64,000 nt of DNA from Candidatus Bathyarchaeia archaeon (GCA_038883775.1 JAVZLM010000002.1:133587-197586), one strand, 5' to 3'; shown: positions 617-29,764, counted from the first letter of the stretch. The notes: generated by a model not told the origin, from the letters alone. Program-made: numbers and translations.

Positions 617-2158
617 ATGTTTAAACAAGCAAATTGGAACGAACCCATAATTTTCAAACTTGTAAGGGAAGGACGAAGGGGACATATTCCACCCAAATTG
701 GAGGAAGAAATTAAGAAGGTTGTAGGCGAAGCGGATGCGCTTATACCAAAGAATATGCTGCGCAAAAGTAAGCTTGGGCTTCCGGAACTTTCCGAGGTTG
801 AAGTGGTGCGTCATTTTACTCGCTTATCGGAGATGAATTTTGGGGTTGATTCTGGCTTTTACCCTCTTGGAAGCTGTACAATGAAGTATAACCCAAAAAT
901 AAACGAACAACTCGCCAATCTGCCAACCATCGCCATGCTTCATCCATACCAGGACGAAAGCACGGTGCAAGGCATCCTTGAAATCCTCTACAAACTTGAG
1001 CGCTGGCTTGCAGAGTTGACGGGCACTTATGAAGTTTGTTTGCATCCAGCCGCTGGAGCCCACGGCGAATTCTTAGGAACTTTGCTAATGCGTGCATATC
1101 ACAAAATGAATGGAGACAACGAGAAAAGAAGCGAAGTAATAGTTCCAGACTCAGCCCACGGAACAAACCCGGCAAGCGCAACCATGGCAGGCTTCAAAGT
1201 TGTTGTTGTCCCATCAGACAAGGATGGCTGCGTTAATCTGGAAGCCTTAAAGGCTGCGGTTTCCGAAAAAACAGCAGGTTTAATGCTAACAAACCCAAAC
1301 ACCCTCGGAATTTTCGAAAAGAACATTGAAGAAATAGCCAAAACCATCCACGAGGCTGGCGGACTCCTCTACTATGATGGCGCAAACCTAAATCCGCTCT
1401 TGGGCATTGTTAGACCAGGCGACATGGGCTTCGACATAGTCCACATAAACATACACAAAACCTTCAGCACACCCCACGGTGGTGGCGGTCCAGGCGCTGG
1501 ACCAGTGGGCGTTTCAGAGAAATTAGCGAAGTTTTTGCCTGTTCCCCGCATAGTTTATGATGGTGAACGTTATCGTTTAGATTACGATAAGCCCTATAGT
1601 GTTGGGAAGATTAGAAGTTTTTATGGGAATGTCGCTGTTTTGTTGAAGGCTTACGCTTACATTTTAAGTTTGGGCTTTGAGGGTTTAAGGGAAGTTGCTG
1701 AAGTTTCTGTTTTGAACGCTAATTACTTGATTAAAAAACTGAAAGGCATTAGGGGTTTAACCCTTCCGTACAATAGTGAAAAGCCAAGAAAACACGAGTG
1801 CGTATTTAGCGCTAAGCCTTTAAAAAATGAAACTGGGGTTTCAGCCCTAAACATTGCAAAACACCTTTTGGATTATGGATTGCATGCGCCAACAATCTAT
1901 TTCCCACTAATTGTTGAAGAAGCCTTAATGATCGAACCAACAGAAACCTTCGAAAAAGAGGAGCTTGACAGATTTGTTGATTCCATGCAGAAAATCTGCG
2001 AGGAAGCTTACAAGAATCCAGAAGTGGTTTTAAAAGCGCCACATAACACTGCTATTTCGCGACTGGATGAGGTTAAGGCTTCACATCCGAAAACTATGGC
2101 TTTAAGCTGGCGCATGTTCAACAAAAGAATGGACAAAAAGGTGGTTTCAGATAAATAG
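617..2158 (+). CDS. gcvPB: Glycine cleavage system P protein subunit 2
   Basis: YPLGSCTMKYNP, SAHGTNPASA and PLP-lysine motif HKTFSTPHGGGGPG. Confidence 0.95.
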   Translation: MFKQANWNEPIIFKLVREGRRGHIPPKLEEEIKKVVGEADALIPKNMLRKSKLGLPELSEVEVVRHFTRLSEMNFGVDSGFYPLGSCTMKYNPKINEQLANLPTIAMLHPYQDESTVQGILEILYKLERWLAELTGTYEVCLHPAAGAHGEFLGTLLMRAYHKMNGDNEKRSEVIVPDSAHGTNPASATMAGFKVVVVPSDKDGCVNLEALKAAVSEKTAGLMLTNPNTLGIFEKNIEEIAKTIHEAGGLLYYDGANLNPLLGIVRPGDMGFDIVHINIHKTFSTPHGGGGPGAGPVGVSEKLAKFLPVPRIVYDGERYRLDYDKPYSVGKIRSFYGNVAVLLKAYAYILSLGFEGLREVAEVSVLNANYLIKKLKGIRGLTLPYNSEKPRKHECVFSAKPLKNETGVSALNIAKHLLDYGLHAPTIYFPLIVEEALMIEPTETFEKEELDRFVDSMQKICEEAYKNPEVVLKAPHNTAISRLDEVKASHPKTMALSWRMFNKRMDKKVVSDK

Positions 2159-2213
2159 TTTATATGGCACATTAACGTTTGTTCACGAAAAGATAAATGG
2201 ATGTGTAAAAGGT

Positions 2214-2504
2214 TTGACTGAATTAGAAGATAAGGTGCGGGAAGCTGTCGGCAAAGTTGTTGACCCAGAAACTGGTTTGAGCTTCGCTGAAATGCACATG
2301 GTTAAAGATGTGAAAGAGGAAGAGCCAGGCGTTGTTAAAGTGGAGTTTATCCCTTCAAGTCCTTTCTGTCCCATAGCCTTCAAACTTGCCATGGACGTGA
2401 AAAATGCAGCAAAAACCGTTAGCGGAGTCAAAAAAGTCTCGGTTTATTGTCGTGGCCACATGATGGAGCAGCAGATTAACGAAATGGTCAACAAAGAACA
2501 ATAA
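2214..2504 (+). CDS. DUF59/SufT-like metal-sulfur cluster assembly factor
   Basis: VVDPETG and SPFCP motifs, 96 aa. Confidence 0.8.
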   Translation: MTELEDKVREAVGKVVDPETGLSFAEMHMVKDVKEEEPGVVKVEFIPSSPFCPIAFKLAMDVKNAAKTVSGVKKVSVYCRGHMMEQQINEMVNKEQ

Positions 2505-2543
2505 AAGCCTAATAGCTCTTTTTTATTTGCGAGGGTTTAGCCA

Positions 2544-3416
2544 ATGAGCGTCAAGGGAACGCATGAAATCTACTGCTGCGGCGCCCGCGTTAGAATTTCG
2601 GAAAAGGGCATAGAAGTCTTAAGCGAACCATTAATAGAATACTGCCCACTCCACGAAACCCTTTACGGAACAAAAAACATCAATGCTGAAGCTGTGCGGA
2701 AAACCGTTGAAATGAAACTGGCTGGTTTTGGCTTCTGCTGTGCAAACCGCCTTTTTAACTCGGAATCTGTCGTGGCTTATGGGGCTTCCGAAATGATGCG
2801 GGTTTGGCTTGAGAAAAAGCTTATTGACTGTGCAGTTGTTGTATGCGAAGGCGCTGGAACAGTTATAACAGCAAACGGCGAGCTTGTGCAAGCTATCGGA
2901 GCCCGTTTGACGGGCATAATCAAAACAACGCCAATAAAAGAAATTATCTCACACATCGAAAGGAACGGCGGAACAGTTTTAGATAAAGCCACAGCGCAAA
3001 TTGACCAATTTGAAGGCGTAAAAAGGGCTTCCAATTTAGGCTTTAAACGCATAGGCGTAAGCGTTACTGGCTTCCAAGCAAAAGCCATAAGCGAAATAAG
3101 AAAATTTGAAGCAAAAACGAAAGCTGAAATCCTAATCTTTTCTGTCTGCAACACATGTGTGAAAAAAGAAGACGCAAAACACATAGCTAAGGCAGATGTT
3201 GCCTGTGCAAGTGCTTCGAAAATCCTTCGAAACGAAATAGGCAGCAAAGCCCTGCTACAATTGAGCGTAACAATACCAGTCTACGCATTAACAGAAAAAG
3301 GCAAAAAACTTGTCTTAACCTATTTAGCCGAGTTTAAGGATAAACTCGTTGTTTTCAGAACAAAGAAACTCCCATACCAAACGGAAAATAGGGGTCCAAG
3401 GCTTAAGGAAAGCTGA
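2544..3416 (+). CDS. Methanogenesis marker protein 8 family (DUF2099)
   Basis: EPLIEYCPL, FGFC, YGASE, DCAVVVCEGAGTVI, LVQAIGARLTGIIKTTPI, ACASK-like pattern. Confidence 0.8.
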   Translation: MSVKGTHEIYCCGARVRISEKGIEVLSEPLIEYCPLHETLYGTKNINAEAVRKTVEMKLAGFGFCCANRLFNSESVVAYGASEMMRVWLEKKLIDCAVVVCEGAGTVITANGELVQAIGARLTGIIKTTPIKEIISHIERNGGTVLDKATAQIDQFEGVKRASNLGFKRIGVSVTGFQAKAISEIRKFEAKTKAEILIFSVCNTCVKKEDAKHIAKADVACASASKILRNEIGSKALLQLSVTIPVYALTEKGKKLVLTYLAEFKDKLVVFRTKKLPYQTENRGPRLKES

Positions 3417-3469
3417 AAAATGCGGGAGTTTGGTTGATGCTTCTGTATACGGAAGGCAAATAGCAGAAA

Positions 3470-4099
3470 TCACCAAGAGCCTGGAATGTACTCTCTTAAC
3501 CTAAATTTTACTCCTAATTTTTTGGCGATTTCCTCAACCTTTGAAATTTCAACTTCTGGTATGGCTACTGCTGTGATTTCTGTTTCAAAGTTTCCCTTTG
3601 CTTTTTCCAAAAATTCTAAAATGCTTTCAAAGGCATTTTCATAAGCTGGTTTGCAAATTTGATTGTATATTTCTTTGTTGTGAGCATTCAAGCTGACGCT
3701 TATTCTGTTCACGCCAGCCTCCTTTAATTCATTAAGCAAGTCTCGTTCTTTGTTAATTAGGAAGCCTTGCCCATTAGTGTCTATTCTAATGCTAATGGGC
3801 TTACCGTAATAACGCCTTATCCATCTACAGACTTCTAAAAGGCAAGCCAATCGCTCTAAGGGTTCGCCGAAACCGCAGAAGACAATTTCGCTCCAATTTT
3901 TTAAATTTATAATGTTCTGAAGTTCGCTTATTATTTCGCTGGTTGAAGGCTCTCTTGATAGTTTGAGGTTGAAATCACCCACACCATTCTTAAAATTTCT
4001 TATGCAGAAATAGCAGTTGTTAGAGCACTTATTAGTTATGTTTAGATAGAGTTTGTTTCCAAGCCAGTAAACGGTTCTCGGAGTTTTCTGAATAGGCAT
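3470..4099 (-). CDS. Radical SAM protein, TatD-associated family
   Basis: LYLNITNKCSNNCYFCIR (CxxxCxxC), EIVFCGFGEP, IRIDTNG. Confidence 0.85.
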   Translation of the reverse strand: MPIQKTPRTVYWLGNKLYLNITNKCSNNCYFCIRNFKNGVGDFNLKLSREPSTSEIISELQNIINLKNWSEIVFCGFGEPLERLACLLEVCRWIRRYYGKPISIRIDTNGQGFLINKERDLLNELKEAGVNRISVSLNAHNKEIYNQICKPAYENAFESILEFLEKAKGNFETEITAVAIPEVEISKVEEIAKKLGVKFRLREYIPGSW

Positions 4100-4170
4100 T
4101 TTGGCTCACTTTATGAAAGGATTTAAATGCTAATTGTGGTTTTATGGTTTTGTTATTACGAGGAGAAATC

Positions 4171-5796
4171 ATGGTTAAATACATATTTGTTACGGGCGGC
4201 GTGTTAAGCTCTGTTGGCAAGGGCATTGTAACCTCTTCTATTGGCAAGATGCTTCAAGCAAGAGGCTTAAAGGTTACTGCTGTAAAAATTGACCCTTACG
4301 TGAATGTCGACGCTGGAACAATGAACCCTTACATGCACGGCGAAGTGTACGTGACAGATGATGGCGGCGAAACAGACCTTGATTTGGGTTGGTATGAGCG
4401 TTTTCTTGACTTAAACTTAAAAAAAGATAATAACATCACCACAGGCTTGGTTTATAGGGCAGTCATCGAAAAAGAGCGCCGAGGCGACTTTCTTGGAAGA
4501 TGCGTCCAAATCGTGCCCCATGTGACAAATGAGATTAAACATCGCATCCGCGCTGTGGCAAAATCCTCAAACGTTGACGTGGTTTTGACAGAAGTCGGCG
4601 GCACAGTTGGAGACATTGAGGGCTTACCCTTCCTTGAAGCTATTCGCCAAATGCGCTTAGAAGAGGGTTTCGAAAACACATTGTACGTGCACGTAGCCTT
4701 AGTTCCCATTTTGGATGTTACCAAAGAGATGAAAACCAAGCCTTTACAGCATAGCGTCAATGAGTTGAGGCGTATAGGTATTCAGCCAGACATTATTGTG
4801 GCACGCTGTTCTGAAATGATCGACGCTGAATCTTTAAGGAAAATAGCCTTGTTTGGAACGATTCCAGAAAATGCGGTCTTCTGCTCCTACAATGTAGAAT
4901 CAATTTATCAGGTTCCGTTAATTTTGGATGAGCAGGGAATGGGCAACTTCATATGCAAAAGACTTGGCTTTTCGGAAACCAAACCAGATTTTAAAAATTG
5001 GAAAGAATTCGTAGACGCCGTAACAAAGCCAAAACATGAAGTGCGAATAGCCCTTGTTGGAAAGTATGCTGGATTAGCAGACAGTTACGTAAGCATGAAT
5101 GAAGCCCTTCGCCATGGAGGCGCAGTATGCAAAACAAAAGTTTTGATAGAATACATTGAAGCTGAAAGGTTTGAAGAACACCCAGAAAAACTTGAAACTC
5201 TTAAAAGTTTTGACGGAATTTTTGTGCCTTACGGTTTTGGTCCAAGGGGCACCGAAGGAAAAATTATGGCAATAAAATTTGCAAGAGAAAACAACATTCC
5301 ATTTCTTGGAATATGCTACGGCTTTCAGTTGGCAGTTGTGGAGTTTGCAAGAAACGTCTGCGGCTTAAAAGAGGCAAACAGCACAGAAATAAACCCCAAC
5401 TCGCCCCACCCAGTAATCGACTTAATGCCAGAACAAAGAGGAATAGAAATTAAAGGGGCTACCATGCGTTTGGGCGCCCACAAAATAATTATAAAGCCAA
5501 ACACAATGGCTTATACACTTTATAAAAGTGAAGAAATTTATGAGCGCCACCGCCACAGGTTTGAGGTAAATCTTGACTATTTGGAAAAGTTTGAAAAGAA
5601 CGGCTTAGTGTTTTCTGGAAAAAGCGTGGATGCTAGAAGAATGGAAATTTTGGAATTGCCAGACCACTACTTCTTTTTCGCTTCACAATTTCACGGAGAA
5701 TTCAAAAGCCGCCCTGGAAGACCAGACCCAGAATACTATGGCTTTATAAAAGCATGCTTAGACAAAAAGTTGGGTAAGGCTAAACCAGAATTTTAG
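4171..5796 (+). CDS. pyrG: CTP synthase
   Basis: [32 protein letters not shown] nucleophile, [15 protein letters not shown]; ATG at 4171 follows GGAG SD. Confidence 0.97.
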
Positions 5797-23827: not shown

Positions 23828-25123
23828 TCACCTCACAAGTAAATTAGACGCTGTGTTCTCAACTTTTTTCATTATACTTGCCTCACCCAATGTTTTAACA
23901 TGCCCTTTTTCCATTATTATTTTTCCATCAACAATAACAGTGTCCACATCACTTCCACGGGCAGAATAAACAAGACTTGCAAAAACATCATGTGATGGCT
24001 TTAAATGCGGCTTTGAAAAGTCAATTAGGATTATATCCGCTCTTTTTCCAATTTCAAGCGAACCAATTTTATCTGCTAAACCTAAGGCTTCGGCTCCATT
24101 TATTGTTGCCATCCTCAAAACTTCATAGGCAGATAAAACTGTTGGATTCGCATATGTAAGTTTTTGAAGCAATGCTGCAAATTTCATGGTTTCAAACATG
24201 TCAAGAGTATTATTGCTTGCTGGACCGTCCGTTCCCAAACACACATTAATGCCTAAACTCATCAAATCTTTTATTTTAGCCGCTCCCAAGCCAAGTTTCA
24301 TGTTAGCCACTGGAACATAAGCAACGTGAACAACATGCTCGGAAAGGACACGCATATCCTTTTCTGAGAGGTTTATACAGTGGGCAGCTAAAACGTGATT
24401 CTTAAAAAAGCCTATTTCATCCAAAAATTCCACTTCGCTAACACCGTGTAACATCTCTTTTGACTCAGCCAAATGCACATGTATGCCAACTCCAAGCTCA
24501 GAAGCTTTTTGGCTCACTTCTCTAAGCAATTCTTTGCTGCAACTGTAAGCTGCATGCGGTCCAAGTAAGGCTGTTATTTTGCCATTAGCATACCCATGAA
24601 ATTTTTTAGCGAAATCAATGCTTTCGTTGAACATTTTTCGTCCTAACTCTTTGTTTCCAGCTTCGATTATTCCTTGGGCTAATGCTGCCCTCATTCCGCT
24701 CTGCTCCACAGCCTTTGCAACCATTTCTTCATGAAAATACATGTCAGCAAAACATGTTGTTCCGCTTTTAATCATTTCCAAACAGCCCAAAAGGGCACCA
24801 ACGTAAATGTCTTCAGCCTTGAGCTTAGCTTCCAAAGGCCAAATGGCTTCTCTTAACCAAACATTTAATGGTTTGTCTTCGGCGATTCCCCGAAATAATG
24901 TCATCGGCGCATGTGTGTGAGAGTTAATCAATCCTGGCATGGCGACTTTCCCCTTTGCGTTTATCTGTTTTTCAGCCTTTATGCCAGTTGTAAGGGAAGC
25001 TTTGCCAACAAAAACTATTTCGCCACCTTTTATGGCTATGGCACCATCTTCTATGAAATATTTACCATTCATTGGCAAAACGGTGCATCCGTGAACTAAA
25101 ACATCCACCTTCTCCAAAAGCAC
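23828..25123 (-). CDS. Amidohydrolase, MTA/SAH deaminase family
   Basis: PGLINSHTH, GPHAAY, HVHLAES, AAHC, LGTDGPASNN. Confidence 0.88.
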   Translation of the reverse strand: MLLEKVDVLVHGCTVLPMNGKYFIEDGAIAIKGGEIVFVGKASLTTGIKAEKQINAKGKVAMPGLINSHTHAPMTLFRGIAEDKPLNVWLREAIWPLEAKLKAEDIYVGALLGCLEMIKSGTTCFADMYFHEEMVAKAVEQSGMRAALAQGIIEAGNKELGRKMFNESIDFAKKFHGYANGKITALLGPHAAYSCSKELLREVSQKASELGVGIHVHLAESKEMLHGVSEVEFLDEIGFFKNHVLAAHCINLSEKDMRVLSEHVVHVAYVPVANMKLGLGAAKIKDLMSLGINVCLGTDGPASNNTLDMFETMKFAALLQKLTYANPTVLSAYEVLRMATINGAEALGLADKIGSLEIGKRADIILIDFSKPHLKPSHDVFASLVYSARGSDVDTVIVDGKIIMEKGHVKTLGEASIMKKVENTASNLLVR

Positions 25124-25220: not shown

Positions 25221-25634
25221 CTAAAACACTGGTTTTTCTTCGATTCTCTTTATTAATGGACGAAGAGCTGGTTGAGGAACGTTTTCCTCTTCTAAACCGC
25301 CTTTTGGAAGCCCAGAGGTGCCAATTTTTCTGCATATGAAGTTAAGGGAATCCTCTGTGAAGTTCAGTAGACTTTGTCCTTCAGAGGTTAACTTGTAAAC
25401 TTTTCTAGGTCTTTCGCTGTTCATGTTCCATTCGCTTTTTACATATCCCTTCTTTTCTAAGGCATTTAGGAGCGGATATATTGTGCTTGGTCCAAAATAA
25501 ACCCCAAAGGTTTTGCGTACTTTGGTGATTATTTGATAGCCGTGCATTGGCTGCGTGCTTAGAAACTGGAGCACTATTAGGTCTAGGAGGCCTTTCATCA
25601 ATTTGACCTGAACTTCTTTAGAGTTGTTAACCAT
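25221..25634 (-). CDS. PadR family transcriptional regulator
   Basis: KGLLDLIVL, PMHGYQI, GPSTIYPLLNALEKKG, RKVYKLT; ATG at 25634 follows AGGAAGGAAG. Confidence 0.92.
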   Translation of the reverse strand: MVNNSKEVQVKLMKGLLDLIVLQFLSTQPMHGYQIITKVRKTFGVYFGPSTIYPLLNALEKKGYVKSEWNMNSERPRKVYKLTSEGQSLLNFTEDSLNFICRKIGTSGLPKGGLEEENVPQPALRPLIKRIEEKPVF

Positions 25635-25652
25635 TATTCTTCCTTCCTTTTT

Positions 25653-25703
25653 CACGTGTTTTTTTGTTTTACACGTGTACAATATGTCCTTTTTTGGACA
25701 TAT
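25653..25703. promoter_or_regulatory. Two inverted repeats between the divergent padR genes: CACGTGT-N11-ACACGTG (25653-25677) and ATATGTCC-T6-GGACATAT (25682-25703); putative operators
   Basis: Perfect arms read directly from the sequence; the ATGT...ACAT core resembles PadR-family sites. Confidence 0.55.
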
Positions 25704-25863
25704 CTCAAGACTTTATAGAGCCTAAACAGAAATATAAACGTTCATGCTTACCACAAACATAAAAAAGCATACAGAAGCATACAAAAATATTCCATTTTCT
25801 ACATAACTTAAATAAACTCAAACCCGAACAAGTCCAAAACAGAACACTACAGAGCGTGAAAAA

Positions 25864-26190
25864 TTGGCACAAAACTACAAAAAAGAAATTGTTCAACGCA
25901 TAACCAGAAACCTACTAGACATCCAAATACTAAGACTCCTAAACGCTGAACCCATGTGGGGCTACAAAATAAAAAAACAGGTAGAAACAAAATACGAAGT
26001 AAAACTAAGACACGGAGCCCTATACCCACTGCTGAAGACACTAGAACAAAAAGGTTTCCTTAAAAGCCAGCAACAACGCCAAGGTAGAAGAACAAGAAAA
26101 CTATATGCAATAACAGAAAAAGGAAAGGAATACATAGAAACCTATAACAGCATACTAAAAGAACAAATACAAAAACAAGACATAAAATAA
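25864..26190 (+). CDS. PadR family transcriptional regulator
   Basis: LLDIQIL, PMWGYKI, HGALYPLLKTLEQKG, RKLYAITEKG. Confidence 0.9.
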   Translation: MAQNYKKEIVQRITRNLLDIQILRLLNAEPMWGYKIKKQVETKYEVKLRHGALYPLLKTLEQKGFLKSQQQRQGRRTRKLYAITEKGKEYIETYNSILKEQIQKQDIK

Positions 26191-26194
26191 AACG

Positions 26195-27208
26195 ATGCGC
26201 ATGAAAAAGCAAGCTAACAAAAAATTGATGGAACAAGTTCAGATATTTCTAAAAAAACGTGGCCAAAAAGCATTCGAAATTGCCAAAAAAACAATTCTAC
26301 AAGAAAAAAACATGAATACAAATGTTTACAAGGCATTACGTTATTTCATGGAGGAATGTTGGTATGACGTTCAACATCCAGCTCTAATTTCTTTAACCTG
26401 TGAAGCTGTAGGCGGAAATCCTGAAAAAACAAGCGAAATAGGTGCTGCAATTGTGCTCCTCGCGGGAGCGGCAGACATTCATGATGACATCATAGACGAA
26501 TCAAAAACCAAAAACTCCAAACCCACAGTTTTCGGAAAATTCAATAAAGATATAGCACTTCTCGCGGGCGATGCCCTTTTATTTGAAGGTTTAGTTCTTT
26601 TGCATAAAGCATGTAAAAAATTTCCTGAAAAAATAGGAACGACCATTCTGAAATTAACAAAAGAAGCCTTCTTTGATTTAGGGAGAGCTACGGCCAAAGA
26701 AAGAAATTTTAAAGGAAAATATGATTTAGAACCAAAAGAATATTGCAACATTATCAAAATAAAAGCAGCCATCGCAGAAGCATGCGCGAAGATCGGAGCA
26801 GTTATAGGAGGGGGAGAATCGGAAGCGATTGACGCATTAGGTAACTATGGTAGAACTCTTGGAATTTTAATGACTTTGAGGGATGAGTTTATAGATCTAT
26901 TTGAACCCGAGGAAATAAAGAACCGCGCTAAAAATGAAATTTTACCTCTCCCCCTACTGTATGCATTACAGAATGAAACAAAAAAGAATGAAATTCTTTC
27001 TTTAATTAAGAAAAAAAGAATCACAGAGCAAAAAGCACAAGAATTAATTGATTTAGTAACGAAGGCAGATGAAGTTCAAAAATTAAAGAAAGAGATGCAA
27101 ACACTAATAAAAACGGGAGAAAAAGAAATTTTTCGAATTATAAAAAAGACAAAAAACAAAAAACTATTCAATTTACTGCTACAATCCTCAACAGAAGATT
27201 TACCGTAA
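26195..27208 (+). CDS. Polyprenyl-synthase-fold protein with degenerate acceptor site (ComQ-like prenyltransferase candidate)
   Basis: Intact first motif IHDDIID and ALLAGDALL; GKRxRP replaced by DVQHP, RRG by KNS, KT by KA, second DDxxD by RDEFID. Confidence 0.8.
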   Translation: MRMKKQANKKLMEQVQIFLKKRGQKAFEIAKKTILQEKNMNTNVYKALRYFMEECWYDVQHPALISLTCEAVGGNPEKTSEIGAAIVLLAGAADIHDDIIDESKTKNSKPTVFGKFNKDIALLAGDALLFEGLVLLHKACKKFPEKIGTTILKLTKEAFFDLGRATAKERNFKGKYDLEPKEYCNIIKIKAAIAEACAKIGAVIGGGESEAIDALGNYGRTLGILMTLRDEFIDLFEPEEIKNRAKNEILPLPLLYALQNETKKNEILSLIKKKRITEQKAQELIDLVTKADEVQKLKKEMQTLIKTGEKEIFRIIKKTKNKKLFNLLLQSSTEDLP

Positions 27209-27216
27209 AACTAGAA

Positions 27217-27267
27217 CTACCACCAGCCCGTTGGCCTGAATGGTTTAGGTCTTTTTCTCTTTTCCAT
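27217..27267 (-). CDS. Putative 16-aa precursor peptide MEKRKRPKPFRPTGWW
   Basis: Translated by hand: ATG at 27267, TAG at 27217-27219; preceded by purine-rich AAGGGGAAGGAGA and an upstream TTTTAAG TATA-like box; below the ORF-track length cut-off. Confidence 0.6.
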   Translation of the reverse strand: MEKRKRPKPFRPTGWW

Positions 27268-27286
27268 TCTCCTTCCCCTTCTGTAT

Positions 27287-27301
27287 ATATGTTCAACATA
27301 T
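27287..27301. promoter_or_regulatory. Palindrome ATATGTT-C-AACATAT between the peptide ORF TATA box and SD; putative operator
   Basis: Perfect 7-bp arms; shares ATATGT/ACATAT half-sites with the palindrome at 25682-25703. Confidence 0.5.
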
Positions 27302-27398
27302 GAGCTTAAAAGCTTTACTATTTGTACATGAAATCTTGTTTTGAAATACTAAATGCTTATTTACGAATTTAAATGAGAAATTTAAGGTAAGATGATAA

Positions 27399-28607
27399 AT
27401 GCCTAAAATAGAACTTTTAAGAGAAACGGGTCTTGTTTCAAGATCCGCATTTGCAAATATCGTATCAATATCTAACGTTTTTGTATGGTATTCGTTTGCT
27501 TTTAGCATTTTAAAGGGATTTGTATATGAATTAGCTTCAGTGATATGGGGAGTTCATTTTTTAGGAGCTGCTTTTTCAGCCATAGCGGGAGCTGCAATAA
27601 GTGACAAAATTTCTAGAAAAACACATTTTCTCTTAGTTTGGATGATGTTTGGAATTATTTCATCGTTAATTCTAATATTTGTTGACCCTGAAAATAAATT
27701 GAATGTTGTGGCGATGGCAATCCTTTTAGGAATATCATTTGGCATAGGAATCCCTACAAGTATGGGACAGCTTGCTTACTGCGCAGCCGTTGAAGATCGA
27801 GCGAAGATTGGCGGTTTAACAATCTTTGTTTATGGATTAGGAGCATTCTTCCTTGGAATAATAGCAGTTGATGACATTACCTTACAAGCCCTAACCCTTG
27901 CAATTTGGAGAGCAATCGGTTTAATAATTTTTCTTCTAGTTAACCATTCTCAAAATGTGGAGAAACGAAAAAGTGTTTCCTTTAGGTTCATATTTAATCA
28001 GCGGTCCTTTTGTTTCTACTTCATACCATGGACGATGTTTTCATTAGTTAATTATTTAGGAGGAGTGATAGCGTTTCAAATTCTAAATGAGAGTACAGTT
28101 AATTTATTTATTATTATTGAAAATGTTCTGATCGGAACCTTTGCAATTGTTGCCGGTTTTCTTGCAGATACCTTTGGTCGCAAGCGTATAACTATTATCG
28201 GATTTGTCATGTTAGGCCTTGGTTATGCCGTCTTGGGAATTTACCCTGAGAATTTGGTCGGTTGGTATTTTTACACGATAGTTGATGGTGTTGCTTGGGG
28301 CATTTTTTGGGTAATATTTATTATCACAATATGGGGTGACCTCAGTTATGGCATGTCTGAGGATAAGTACTACGCGATTGGAGGATTGCCTTTCTATATG
28401 TCAAATTTTCTACGAATTCTAATAGGTCCTTATATTGCAAAAGTTATCTCTGTGTACGCAATGTTTTCTTTTGCCGCTTTTTTCTTATTTTTAGCCGTTA
28501 TTCCACTTATGTTCGCGCCCGAGACTTTGCCTGAGAAGAAGCTTAGGGAGAGGGAGCTTAGGCAGTATGTTGAGAAGGCCAGGAAGATTAAGGAAAAGTT
28601 TACTTAG
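27399..28607 (+). CDS. MFS transporter
   Basis: About 12 TM segments; motif A copies GAAISDKISRK and GFLADTFGRKR; C-terminal PETL. Confidence 0.9.
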   Translation: MPKIELLRETGLVSRSAFANIVSISNVFVWYSFAFSILKGFVYELASVIWGVHFLGAAFSAIAGAAISDKISRKTHFLLVWMMFGIISSLILIFVDPENKLNVVAMAILLGISFGIGIPTSMGQLAYCAAVEDRAKIGGLTIFVYGLGAFFLGIIAVDDITLQALTLAIWRAIGLIIFLLVNHSQNVEKRKSVSFRFIFNQRSFCFYFIPWTMFSLVNYLGGVIAFQILNESTVNLFIIIENVLIGTFAIVAGFLADTFGRKRITIIGFVMLGLGYAVLGIYPENLVGWYFYTIVDGVAWGIFWVIFIITIWGDLSYGMSEDKYYAIGGLPFYMSNFLRILIGPYIAKVISVYAMFSFAAFFLFLAVIPLMFAPETLPEKKLRERELRQYVEKARKIKEKFT

Positions 28608-28622
28608 CGCTAAAATCTGTTT

Positions 28623-29764
28623 GTGAGTGGAGGCGCCTTCACGTTCTTCCATCTAATATTAACAAATGAGTGTAATCTTCAATGCAAATACTGTTTTGGC
28701 GAAGCCATTGAAGATTTTGACTCTTACTTTCATAATTTTGATGTCGATTATTCGTTGCCCAAACGGATGAGTTATAATGTGAAGTTGTTGGATAGGTTTT
28801 GCAGGCGAGATGCTGATTGCGTTTTGATTTTTTATGGTGGTGAGCCTTTGCTTTGTTTGGATGAGGTTAGGGGGATTATGGATTTTGTGCGGGTTAAGCA
28901 TTTTATTGTTCAAACTAATGGTTTGCTTTTGGATAGACTTGAGTCAGAATATGTTAACCGTTTCCACACAATTCTTGTTTCATAGACGGCGATGAAGCCT
29001 TAACAGACTTTTACAGGGGTAACGGCAGTTTCGGGAAGGTTGTTGAAAATTTGAGGTTGATTAGGCGTAATGGTTTTAGGGGCGAGATTATTGCGCGGAT
29101 GACTGTTATGGAGCAAACAGACATTTATAAGCAGGTTAGATGGCTTCTGGAAAACACAGAGTTTCCATTTTCTTCTATTCATTGGCAGCTTAACGCTGGA
29201 TTTTGGTCAAACGATTTTGAACGTCGCAATTTCAAAAAATGGAGCGAAGAAAGTTATAATCCCGGAATCCGCAAACTCGTAAAGTTTTGGGTTGACTACA
29301 TGGAAAAAGGCGCTGGTGCTCTTAGGCTTTATCCCTTCCTTGGAGTTGCCCAATCGCTTCTTTTAGGCGAAGAAAAAAGTCTCCTCAGATGTGGGGCTGG
29401 GTGGATTAACTATGCAATTCAAACAGATGGGCATATTATTCCTTGCCCAAGCATGTGGGGAATGAAAGACTATTATTTGGGGCATATTAAAAATGCGGAT
29501 CCACTAAAGCTTAAGAAGGTTTTTGTTGGTGAACCGTGCACGAAATGCGACATTTTGAGCCTTTGTGGTGGAAGATGCCTCTACGCTAATTTTACTAAAC
29601 GTTGGAGTTCATCAGCCTATAGATTGGTTTGTGATACCGTGAGAAATCTAATAGAAGCTGTATGCGCAGAAATACCAAGAATACAGAAACTTATTAGAGA
29701 AAAGAAAATTCGGGTGGAAGATTTCAGATTTATGAAATACAACGGCTGCGAAATAATCCCGTAG
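28623..29764 (+). pseudogene. Radical SAM/SPASM protein (archaeal AF0577-like), split by a 1-nt frameshift near 28981
   Basis: CNLQCKYC, YGGEPL, QTNG in the first frame; ILVS|IDG junction (gtttcatagac needs one more base); the second frame continues IDGDEALTDFYRG and has SPASM cysteines CGAG..PCP..CTKC....CGGRC. Confidence 0.8.

Follow-up and report, generated by a model that had tools for sequence, protein, structure and literature searches.

The region analysed here lies in a 64,000-nucleotide stretch of Candidatus Bathyarchaeia archaeon DNA (GCA_038883775.1, JAVZLM010000002.1:133587-197586; hereafter, the window) and comprises two PadR genes, a polyprenyl-synthase-like (PS-like) gene, a 16-codon micro-peptide gene and an MFS transporter gene. 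All five features were found where a preliminary description of this DNA had placed them, and its account of an AT-richer block also holds, with a GC content of 0.358 against 0.403 ± 0.014 in same-length sliding windows (lowest 1.2%). The products of padR1 (25221..25682, minus strand) and padR2 (25864..26190, plus strand; 108 aa, TTG start) belong to the PadR family, scoring 69.1 and 71.3 bits, respectively, against PF03551 (gathering score 27). As listed, the padR1 ORF encodes 153 aa, but its true start is probably the ATG at 25634, giving 137 aa, since its orthologues start at MVNNSKEVQ. The padR2 gene ends 4 nt before the PS-like gene (26195..27208, plus strand; 337 aa), a directly upstream position that is conserved, and the shortness of this gap suggests that both genes are probably co-transcribed. 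The micro-peptide gene (27217..27267 including the stop, minus strand; 16 codons plus TAG) encodes MEKRKRPKPFRPTGWW and, falling under the 20-aa minimum of the ORF listing, was taken from direct translation. Its stop codon lies 8 nt from that of the PS-like gene, so that the two genes are convergent, and it is oriented divergently to the MFS gene (27399..28607, plus strand; 402 aa, 54.9 bits against PF07690).

The trio formed by the PS-like, micro-peptide and MFS genes is recurrent across many uncultured Bathyarchaeia, and the same assembly contains a second copy of the module, located on contig C18 and encoding the peptide MKKKRIKPFRWVGWL. The MFS gene lies 3' of the PS-like gene and on the same strand in 93 fetched loci, including those of the window and contig C18, and in related loci the peptide gene always occupies the interval between the two. 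The preliminary description had assigned both an MFS transporter and PadR regulators to the system; the presence of the PadR genes is variable, with a divergent pair found upstream in about half of the loci with enough flanking sequence (44 of 78). At the loci, the gene types recovered with seven queries were limited to PadR, MFS, radical SAM, amidohydrolase and agmatinase. In L005 and L064, the PS-like gene occurs in tandem copies alongside a single peptide gene. A pattern search detected no such peptide in five variant loci with a divergently placed MFS gene, nor was one seen near the enzyme in two loci lacking an adjacent MFS gene; a secreted protease-like ORF is confined to variant loci without the peptide. 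We found no published description of such a system, and the trio may represent a hitherto undescribed pathway through which archaea produce a lipid-modified peptide.

A frequent neighbor overlooked in the preliminary description is a radical SAM/SPASM gene, which lies directly 3' of the MFS gene in about two thirds of the loci (41/59) and is not adjacent to it in the remaining 18. It is also present in relatives without the PS-like gene, and its nearest NCBIfam relatives are peptide maturases. In the window this gene (28623..29764, plus strand) is frameshifted by a one-base deletion near position 28982, resulting in two pieces (28623-28985 and 29051-29764) that score 81.2 and 184.1 bits against TIGR04084 (cut-off 225 bits), whereas the intact copy on contig C18 scores 317.6 bits. 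A tblastn comparison with the intact copy revealed a single frame change. The source-run contig has the same deletion, and the contigs of relatives have one additional base there.

A single 16-codon ORF is uninformative on its own. We compared antisense, sense and shuffled sequences using a fixed search pattern that comprised a basic stretch, a P/V-x-R core, an aromatic tail and a stop. In the intergenic regions between the PS-like and MFS genes, this pattern was identified in antisense orientation in 78 of 93 loci, in sense orientation in 4 of 93 and in 77 of 1860 shuffled sequences, and inspection of the 15 loci missed by the pattern revealed a recognizable variant ORF in 14 of them. Of the 93 related loci, 92 (87/88 non-redundant) contain a homologous ORF in antisense orientation, with the start codon, a Shine-Dalgarno-like motif and the open frame all maintained in those 92. 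The encoded peptides range from 12 to 23 aa, follow the enzyme tree and are rich in Lys and Arg (4 to 9 per peptide), with a tail rich in Trp, Phe and Tyr; that of the window starts with a polybasic segment, followed by a P-x-R core, and ends in Trp-Trp. Among 78 distinct DNA versions, the conserved Arg is encoded by six different codons and the conserved Pro by four, and pN/pS is 0.23 over 16 independent pairs. The locus was not found in any RNA run. The conservation across 92 of 93 loci, the synonymous variation at Pro and Arg positions, the low pN/pS and the conserved Shine-Dalgarno-like, TATA-like and promoter elements establish, at the level of sequence, that the micro-peptide ORF is a real gene. 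The preliminary description had made its reading dependent on short Trp-containing ORFs occurring beside homologous enzymes, and they do occur, as a conserved gene linked to both the enzyme and the MFS transporter. The Trp tail on which it relied is present in 75 of 87 peptides, but it is not invariant: among the 12 peptides without Trp, 9 have only Phe or Tyr in the tail and 3 are aromatic-free, the invariant features being a stretch of basic residues and the P-x-R core.

The sequence between the peptide and MFS genes contains several conserved elements. The 5' leader of the peptide gene (27268..27280, minus strand) carries the purine-rich Shine-Dalgarno-like sequence GGGGAAGGAGA, and a GGAG-type motif precedes the peptide start in most loci. 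Upstream of it lies the element ATGTTGAACATATATACAG (27281..27299, minus-strand letters), with family consensus TGT[TA][GC]AACA-N3-5-ATACAG, which is the sole match in the window at up to three mismatches (0 expected) and which holds the same position across loci, including those without an adjacent PadR gene. Its location between a TATA-like box and the probable transcript start makes it a candidate repressor site. The box in question, AAAGCTTTTAAG (27305..27316, minus-strand letters), is conserved in the same register in almost every upstream region aligned. On the basis of archaeal promoter layout, this BRE/TATA-like box can be considered the putative promoter of the peptide gene. The AT-rich element GAAATACTAAATGCTTATTTAC (27343..27364, plus strand), located 5' of the MFS gene, probably corresponds to the promoter region of the MFS gene, which diverges from that of the peptide; a similar ATACTAAAT-N-TTATCT string was noticed by eye, and not counted, in the intergenic regions of several other loci.

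The PS-like enzyme scores 94.8 bits against PF00348 (gathering score 27), which places it in the polyprenyl synthetase fold, and its AlphaFold2 model (pLDDT 92.4) is all-alpha, with 1wy0 as best Foldseek match (TM 0.82). Of the NCBIfam families, IdsA (IdsA_Meth) yields the best score (126.6 bits against a cut-off of 468), and all 16 families listed fall below their cut-offs. A residue census over 88 family members revealed that the first Asp-rich motif (FARM; DDIID, residues 97-101) retains D97, D98 and D101 in every member. The second acidic motif (DEFID, residues 230-234) is not degenerate in the manner that the preliminary description gives for ComQ, but follows a [DE][DE]xxD pattern with an acidic residue in the first (79/88) and second (88/88) positions and a final Asp in 85/88. 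K106 and R244 are present in all 88 sequences, K190 in 86, and R229, immediately before the second acidic motif, in 84. The residues that we take, from the FPP synthase literature, to bind IPP comprise a basic motif in region I (G-K-R-x-R), the FQ pair preceding the second Asp-rich motif (SARM) and the GQ glutamine. In this family the IPP-site motif is replaced by W56-x-D58-x-x-H61-P62 (family pattern W-x-[DN]-x-x-[HR]-P), neither the Phe nor the Gln of the FQ pair occurs in any of the 88 enzymes, which present [M/I/L]-[T/I/S] before [DE][DE]xxD, and the GQ glutamine and the second Arg of RRG are kept in only 1 and 3 members, respectively. A canonical GGPP synthase, 27% identical to the PS-like enzyme, is encoded elsewhere in the genome. 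As judged from these motifs, the enzyme is a divergent member of the trans-prenyl-synthase fold in which both acidic motifs are retained, and the loss of the presumed IPP-binding residues suggests that it is more transferase-like than an elongating synthase and acts on a non-IPP acceptor. The joint loss of the FQ and GQ glutamines and of basic residues argues against any IPP condensation; elongation of IPP, which the preliminary description had named as an outcome contrary to its reading, would fit less well than a transferase.

Starting from what is directly observed at these loci (the gene with its conservation and the constraint on its coding sequence, together with synteny and motif pattern), we infer the biochemical steps of the reading that explains them best, namely a cationic, leaderless peptide of RiPP-like type that is prenylated and leaves the cell through the MFS transporter, to which we assign somewhat less than an even chance. 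The peptide would be transcribed from its own promoter, and the enzyme would bind and ionize a prenyl diphosphate through both acidic motifs, K106, K190 and R244. The remodeled IPP site would then direct prenyl transfer not to IPP, but to the aromatic tail or another nucleophile of the peptide, and the resulting cationic lipopeptide would be exported by the MFS transporter. Where present and intact, the radical SAM/SPASM enzyme may add a second modification, and expression may be controlled by the PadR proteins or by a regulator binding the conserved promoter element. A precursor gene, a tailoring enzyme and an exporter that are co-located and co-conserved correspond to the general definition of a RiPP cluster. 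Linkage between the enzyme and peptide genes, however, is not in itself evidence that the enzyme acts on the peptide, and several results weigh against this reading. Twelve of the 87 peptides lack Trp, while characterized trans-IDS-like peptide prenyltransferases are all Trp-specific according to the available portion of PMC13290415. Within the trans-IDS-like Trp prenyltransferases, a group comprising ComQ, PalQ, the P domain of ChrPC and Ord1, a Gln by the SARM or pseudo-SARM contacts the indole NH in Ord1 and PalQ, as described in the accessible parts of PMC12510300, PMC10853753 and PMC13290415, but no Gln immediately precedes the SARM in any of the 88 family enzymes, where Thr, Ile, Ser, Asn and other residues occupy the aligned position. 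Furthermore, archaeal GGPP synthase is closer to the enzyme by sequence and fold than Ord1 is, no leader is recognizable in the 12-23 aa peptides, no protease or RRE-type gene was seen in the core module, and the pattern search found no such peptide in the five variant loci or near the enzyme in the two further ones. The ComQ/ComX reading of the preliminary description is thus partly supported: the conserved Trp-tailed gene and the transferase-like motifs speak for it, and it is weakened by the variable Trp, the conserved second acidic motif, the missing Gln and the inconstant PadR pair.

Among the alternatives, an unlikely but by no means negligible one is that the peptide is unmodified, or modified by the radical SAM/SPASM enzyme only, and acts as a cationic, aromatic-rich membrane-active or antimicrobial agent with the MFS protein providing export or immunity, while the PS-like enzyme makes a separate isoprenoid (for example, a terpenoid or a self-protective membrane lipid) and never touches the peptide. 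The Lys/Arg-rich sequence and its aromatic tail are in line with this alternative, and we take their composition to resemble that of Trp/Arg-rich cationic peptides; likewise, the replacement of Trp by Tyr or Phe, or its loss, is more readily explained by a physico-chemical requirement than by an enzyme site specific for Trp. Also in its favor, the radical SAM/SPASM gene, with peptide maturases as its nearest NCBIfam relatives, lies directly after the MFS gene at 41 of the 59 loci, but it is not adjacent in 18 loci, occurs also in relatives without the PS-like gene and is frameshifted in the window. The peptide gene is far more constantly linked to the PS-like gene than to the radical SAM gene, and an enzyme without an IPP site would still require an acceptor. 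Rather less probable is that the micro-peptide is not a substrate but a partner or regulator of the enzyme or the transporter, for instance providing basic residues in trans or gating transport. Several basic residues of the second substrate site have been lost from the enzyme and the peptide supplies 4 to 9 Lys/Arg, its basic stretch and P-x-R core are invariant where its Trp is not, and tandem PS-like genes in L005 and L064 share one peptide gene. To our knowledge, nonetheless, the trans-prenyl-synthase fold offers no such precedent, the FQ and GQ glutamines have been lost besides the basic residues, which argues against any IPP condensation, and a separate, opposite gene with its own promoter would be unusual for a stoichiometric subunit.

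Two further explanations appear very improbable. One is that the ORF is untranslated and the DNA conserved solely as a bidirectional terminator and promoter region. Its A-rich Lys/Arg codons do correspond to plus-strand oligo-T runs after the enzyme stop, where an archaeal terminator might be expected, but this does not account for purifying selection at the amino acid level, for the use of six Arg and four Pro codons at conserved positions, or for the retention of start, Shine-Dalgarno-like motif and frame in all but one locus. We likewise give very little credence to a true ComQXPA-type quorum-sensing member, with a ComQ orthologue and a ComX-like pheromone precursor. The common fold, the adjoining short Trp ORF and the intact first acidic motif agree with it. 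Against it are the absence of the Gln tied to indole recognition in 88/88 members and the closer relationship to archaeal GGPP synthases. Moreover, no histidine kinase or response regulator was identified with Pfam and NCBIfam among the 8 main ORFs between 23828 and 30658, the 12-23 aa peptide is leaderless and convergent instead of co-directional, and a comQXPA census, in the part available, presents the system as a set of four genes in the same direction, characteristic of Gram-positive bacteria.

The preferred reading, that of a prenylated and exported cationic peptide, shares features with several known systems. In ComQ/ComX and PalQ/PalX, trans-IDS-like enzymes prenylate a peptide Trp, according to the available sections of PMC13290415 and PMC10853753. 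The latter describes PalQ of Paenibacillus alvei as acting on the C-terminal Trp of the core DNVRRFFW; here too, the gene for an all-alpha isoprenoid-synthase-fold enzyme lies beside a peptide gene, the tail proceeds from basic to aromatic residues to a terminal Trp (...KPFRPTGWW), and the enzyme has magnesium-dependent acidic motifs, with IPP condensation not being expected. In the same excerpts (PMC10853753), however, PalX is a long, cleaved precursor of the NHLP type, PalQ has a conserved Gln (Q197) by the SARM for the indole NH and the locus partner is a histidine kinase, whereas here the entire gene spans 12 to 23 codons, that Gln is absent from all 88 enzymes and the partner is an MFS gene, which PadR and radical SAM genes may accompany; PalQ/PalX is bacterial, while this system is archaeal and its Trp is not invariant. 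Bacillus ComQ/ComX similarly shares the trans-IDS-like fold, the conserved FARM and an adjoining short gene with a Trp near the C-terminus. As portrayed in the accessible parts of PMC13290415 and PMC13731918, ComX is leader-bearing and encoded co-directionally in comQXPA, together with kinase and regulator genes, the modified Trp is internal and the SARM region of ComQ is variable, in contrast to the tail Trp and the conserved [DE][DE]xxD seen here, ComQ having been compared by description. Ord1/XiaM (PDB 9V4G-J) presents the same fold (TM 0.67-0.69 and ranks 21-26 in Foldseek; E about 2e-13 in phmmer) and, like the enzyme studied here, an intact FARM, IPP condensation not having been observed for it in the available text of PMC12510300. 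According to the same text, Ord1 acts on free indole and bears a Y-Q pair before a DDxxA pseudo-SARM, whereas the acceptor proposed here is a peptide and [M/I/L]-[T/I/S] precedes [DE][DE]xxD. The best match is archaeal GGPP synthase (Pyrococcus horikoshii 1wy0; IdsA), at E 1.7e-23, TM 0.82 and 25% identity. Overall length, the FARM and the KT-motif Lys are common to both, but the PS-like enzyme has lost the GQ/FQ glutamines, the basic motif of region I and the second Arg of RRG, and it scores far below every NCBIfam equivalog cut-off. Finally, the bacterial microcin C operon combines a very short leaderless precursor gene with a tailoring enzyme and an efflux protein of the MFS type; its chemistry is adenylation as opposed to prenylation and the enzymes are unrelated, with no homology, but its architecture is one that we take to be like that of this module.

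All five features that the preliminary description had assigned to this locus were found at their places: a divergent pair of PadR-type regulator genes, padR1 (25221-25682, minus strand) and padR2 (25864-26190, plus strand), both supported by ORF listing and profile match; a gene of polyprenyl-synthase fold (PF00348; 26195-27208, plus strand), hereafter PS-like; a 16-codon antisense ORF, MEKRKRPKPFRPTGWW, read directly from sequence and translation (27217-27267, minus strand); and an MFS transporter gene identified by profile match (27399-28607, plus strand). The block is also AT-richer than its surroundings, as claimed, with a GC content of 0.358 vs 0.403 ± 0.014 in same-length windows, which ranks it among the lowest 1.2%. 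That gene list had overlooked a radical SAM/SPASM gene of family TIGR04084 (28623-29764, plus strand) directly 3' of the MFS gene. It is read here as two ORFs and carries a one-base deletion near 28982, between ...HTILVS and IDGDEA..., and tblastn against an intact 377-aa homolog from C18, another contig of the same assembly, located the frame change exactly at the deletion point. Contigs of relatives from four hot-spring runs have one extra base at 28980-28982, and the contig from what is probably the source run aligns with the window across the deletion with no gaps; being identical at this point, it therefore provides no independent check of the frameshift.

The assembly comprises 1.69 Mb in 28 contigs (91% complete, 5% contamination), and the window is part of contig C2. 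Homologs with names derive from Candidatus Bathyarchaeia or Bathyarchaeota MAGs, and DNA near-identical to the locus was detected in hot-spring metagenome runs; the contigs came from DNA runs and from one run that bears a metatranscriptomic label but is probably DNA, and no RNA run was listed for the locus. The module occurs a second time at positions 1573-5105 of the 9.2-kb contig C18, with a PS-like gene (61% identity), a peptide ORF (MKKKRIKPFRWVGWL), an MFS gene and the intact radical SAM/SPASM gene; an agmatinase gene comes next, as it does in the window, and no PadR pair lies upstream. This copy could be a true paralog or, given the 5% contamination estimate, belong to a contig of a co-binned related strain.

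For comparative analysis we used 20 loci taken from related genomes, together with 80 from species-representative genomes, the latter being the best 80 among the 240 of 420 candidate stretches that encoded a relative. In 93 loci, counting the window and the C18 copy, an MFS gene lies 3' of the PS-like gene on the same strand. A fixed peptide pattern (at least three Lys/Arg, a P/V-x-R core and one to nine further residues including Trp, Phe or Tyr before the stop) was matched antisense in the PS-like-MFS intergenic region of 78 of these 93 loci, in sense orientation in four, and in 77 of 1860 shuffles. Inspection of the 15 misses identified 14 obvious variants, in which basic residues are fewer, an aromatic residue is lacking or the start codon is GTG, TTG or ACG, and the sole locus devoid of a peptide ORF is the second, long-branched PS-like copy in locus L050. 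The anticipated short ORF beside homologous enzymes is hence present in 92 of 93 loci; with five exact duplicates removed, the count is 87 of 88. The encoded peptides span 12-23 aa, as illustrated by those of loci L004 (MQNRKRPKPIRSRGWL), L014 (MKVRNRPKPIRPFPFTWW), L098 (MRKKLPVRFWWR), L062 (MAKKKKKPMRLYHI) and L015 (MKAKKAKKKDVPVRVML), and the two peptides of 20-23 aa searched against Pfam matched no family.

Synonymous variation at conserved positions is extensive. Across 78 distinct DNA versions, with identical versions counted once, L050 yielding no pick, and L016, L023, L060, L061, L089, L090 and L095 left out because the automatic core pick was wrong or shifted, the conserved Arg is encoded by AGA (36), AGG (14), CGA (18), CGT (4), CGG (3) and CGC (3), the conserved Pro by CCA (40), CCT (19), CCC (11) and CCG (4), and the stop codon is TAA (45), TAG (31) or TGA (2). 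In 16 independent pairs, hand-picked as close neighbors of equal length (one of 17 was dropped for unequal length), pS was 0.54 and pN 0.12 (pN/pS 0.23). The ORF is very probably a translated micro-gene. The Trp-tailed precursor initially envisaged applies to most peptides but not to all: Trp occurs in 75 of 87 and is not invariant, with Phe or Tyr as the only aromatic residue in nine and no aromatic residue in three. The 12 peptides devoid of Trp group in a single clade of 17 members in the enzyme tree, which was built by a quick method.

Some peptide genes depart from the usual form. Six loci of a single clade (L035, L044, L047, L048, the first copy of L050, and L054) have ACG at the start-codon position, with a GGAGG-type Shine-Dalgarno stretch 5', no in-frame ATG, GTG or TTG, and a conserved ORF downstream (e.g. 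T-N-K-P-I-R-P-I-R-S-W-W-M), which suggests either near-cognate initiation at ACG or decay of the gene. In the second module copy of L044 (7716-7800), the peptide ORF is broken after MKKP and resumes in another frame as ...KLIRSAGWPGI; a one-base homopolymer difference, whether it is a genuine frameshift or arose in assembly, would explain the break.

The constant core of the module is the PS-like gene, the convergent peptide gene and the MFS gene, with the PadR pair and the radical SAM gene as optional neighbors. The proposed co-occurrence with PadR and MFS stands for the transporter and only in part for the regulators: of the 78 loci with 1300 nt or more of flanking sequence, 44 have a divergent PadR pair upstream. 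The radical SAM/SPASM gene comes immediately after the MFS gene in 41 of the 59 loci whose flank extends to 700 nt or more. Where both flanks are long enough (53 loci), the radical SAM gene occurs by itself in 24, the PadR pair by itself in 14, both in 12 and neither in three. TIGR04084 scores above cut-off in 29 of 41 relatives, some of which have no PS-like gene, and three genomes harbor the PS-like gene with no TIGR04084 match above cut-off. Because each occurs without the other, and given its incomplete adjacency, we rejected the radical SAM gene as a core member and regard it as accessory; our literature search returned no description of TIGR04084 function. Close PS-like homologs (E ≤ 1e-50) are present in 23 of 41 near relatives, and at E ≤ 1e-40 homologs are found in 36 of the 201 genomes sampled from the whole class, chiefly in a few families, labelled f1 (20/27), f7 (7/7) and f34 (3/3).

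Seven loci deviate from this arrangement. In L025, L072, L081, L084 and L088 the MFS gene is upstream on the opposite strand, and in L027 and L058 no MFS gene adjoins the PS-like gene. None of the seven has a peptide of this pattern beside the enzyme, the only match lying ~1 kb upstream of the PS-like gene in L027. The gene order in the first five is MFS (minus strand), a secreted, trypsin-like-looking ORF (minus strand) and PS-like (plus strand). The stretch 3' of the PS-like gene appears near-identical by eye in L072, L081, L084 and L088, where it has no Rfam match and no tRNA, and differs in L025. In the window and in many other loci, padR1 is adjoined by an amidohydrolase gene (23828-25123, minus strand) resembling MTA/SAH or 5'-deoxyadenosine deaminases (PRK06038, 516.7 bits; PRK07228, 403.4 bits; both below cut-offs). 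Deaminases of these types clear 5'-deoxyadenosine, a by-product of radical SAM enzymes; plain synteny could equally account for the adjacency.

The AlphaFold2 model of the 337-aa PS-like enzyme, computed from 20 sequences, adopts a full-length trans-isoprenyl-diphosphate-synthase (trans-IDS) fold (pLDDT 92.4, pTM 0.91). The top Foldseek matches are archaeal GGPP synthases (1wy0 from Pyrococcus horikoshii, TM 0.82; 5jfq, 0.80), with the indole prenyltransferase Ord1 (9V4G-J) at ranks 21-26 (TM 0.67-0.69), and sequence searches gave E-values of 1.7e-23 for 1wy0 and ~2e-13 for Ord1. The protein scores far below every NCBIfam equivalog cut-off (e.g. IdsA, 126.6 vs 468 bits), its own genome encodes a separate canonical GGPP synthase of 27% identity to it, and a protein atlas search retrieved nothing beyond "polyprenyl synthetase" clusters of the family itself. 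Longer forms exist, with the extension at the N-terminus, in a 557-aa ORF of locus L036 (2832-4505) and in the ~500-aa database proteins P0044, P0076 and P0096.

A residue census of 88 family members revealed that the first acidic motif (FARM; DDIID at residues 97-101 of the window enzyme) is invariant (88/88), as are K106 (canonically Arg) and R244 (canonically Lys), while K190 is found in 86. The second acidic motif (SARM), [DE][DE]xxD, is also retained (Asp/Glu at position 1 in 79 and at position 2 in 88; final Asp in 85). The canonical FQ pair is missing altogether (F 0/88, Q 0/88), the Gln of GQxxD occurs once, the second Arg of RRG three times, and the basic motif of region I is replaced by W56 (79/88), D/N58 (81/88), H61 (67/88, with Arg in 15) and P62 (84/88). 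A new Arg, R229, directly precedes the second acidic motif in 84 members. According to FPP synthase mutagenesis work, region I and the FQ pair bind IPP. Loss of these features together with retention of the acidic motifs suggests that the enzyme still binds and ionizes an allylic diphosphate and no longer uses IPP as acceptor. The residues at positions -5 and -4 before FARM are small (Ala or Gly at -5 in 86/88), which would allow room for a long prenyl chain.

On the peptide strand, the loci share upstream signals in register: a BRE/TATA-like sequence (AAAGCTTTTAAG), the element TGT[TA][GC]AACA-N3-5-ATACAG and a GGAG-type Shine-Dalgarno-like stretch before the peptide start. The promoter element of the window (27281-27299, minus strand) is unique within the 64 kb. 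It is only a possible PadR operator: it does not recur in the padR-padR spacer with up to three mismatches, and its conservation is just as strong where the module has no PadR gene next to it; of five genomes with a PadR-less module, three carry a close padR pair at another place. CACGTGT occurs twice upstream of the presumed padR1 start at 25634 (25653-25659 and 25672-25678, 18 nt apart), as does a perfect inverted repeat, ATATGTCC-TTTTTT-GGACATAT (25682-25703); these are candidate autoregulatory sites and are distinct from the peptide-promoter element. At 27140-27265, the Lys/Arg codons of the peptide form plus-strand oligo-T runs right after the PS-like stop, and the Lys-rich C-terminus of PS-like forms three T6 runs on the minus strand, ~60 nt past the peptide stop. 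Each gene may thus carry the archaeal-type terminator of the other.

That the ORF goes untranslated and simply overlies this terminator and promoter DNA is nonetheless highly improbable, as the coding constraint on the peptide speaks against it. We tentatively favor a leaderless RiPP-like pathway, in which PS-like would prenylate the tail of the peptide, or another nucleophile in it, and the MFS transporter would export the resulting cationic lipopeptide, which may serve in signaling, as an antimicrobial or in another role. The only other candidate prenylation site conserved throughout is the invariant Arg of the P-x-R core. A rather less probable explanation is that the peptide acts unmodified, or modified by the radical SAM enzyme only, as a cationic aromatic peptide, with PS-like making a separate isoprenoid; that it serves as a micro-protein partner of PS-like or of the transporter is unlikely, and functions beyond those considered account for the remaining probability. 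We likewise deem it unlikely that the module represents the first peptide-pheromone or lipopeptide system of the Archaea, in which a trans-prenyl synthase without an IPP site would prenylate the aromatic tail of a leaderless precursor of 12-23 aa, among the shortest genes known, with an acceptor range beyond Trp, and in which the product would be exported by the MFS transporter and sensed back by the PadR pair at the promoter element. If true, this would be a cell-cell signaling circuit in the Bathyarchaeia of a kind so far known only in Firmicutes.

Bathyarchaeia are among the most abundant uncultured archaea of sediments, peat and hot springs, and to our knowledge almost nothing is known of their secondary metabolism and cell-cell interactions. 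The comparative data confirm the original observation and greatly strengthen it, and the module supplies a synthesizable candidate substrate of 12-23 residues for an enzyme family annotated as "GGPP synthase". If PS-like prenylates the peptide, trans-IDS-like peptide prenylation would reach the Archaea, leaderless micro-precursors and probably non-Trp acceptors, and hot-spring archaea would offer new lipidation biocatalysts; if it does not, a strongly conserved micro-protein, an isoprenoid-fold enzyme and a transporter would constitute a new small-protein partnership. Gene callers miss genes this small, so a key component of a conserved cluster can stay unseen.

In the literature outside supplementary files, our searches found nothing that describes this cluster, ComQ-like systems in archaea or trans-IDS-like peptide prenylation by archaeal enzymes. 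As outlined in a 2026 review (PMC13290415), ComQ, PalQ, the P domain of ChrPC and Ord1 form one group of trans-IDS-like prenyltransferases, all characterized members are Trp-specific, and indole recognition is ascribed to a Gln just before SARM and to the first SARM Asp. PalQ is described as prenylating the C-terminal Trp of the core DNVRRFFW and as losing activity when residues are added after this Trp or when it is replaced (PMC10853753), and the account of Ord1 gives a Y215-Q216 pair, a DDxxA pseudo-SARM and no IPP condensation (PMC12510300). The module resembles this group in the fold of PS-like, in the basic-then-aromatic, often Trp-terminal peptide encoded next to it and in the loss of IPP-site residues. 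These likenesses uphold part of the initial ComQ/ComX-with-PadR interpretation, whereas the indole-recognition Gln is absent from all 88 PS-like enzymes and the presumed acceptor Trp is variable. Furthermore, unlike in PalQ/PalX and ComQ/ComX, the precursor is leaderless and encoded convergently under a promoter of its own, an MFS transporter takes the place of the kinase as partner, and the host is archaeal. Together, these differences make true membership in ComQXPA exceedingly improbable and place the module outside both that system and the PalQ/PalX family, even though it may work like PalQ/PalX.
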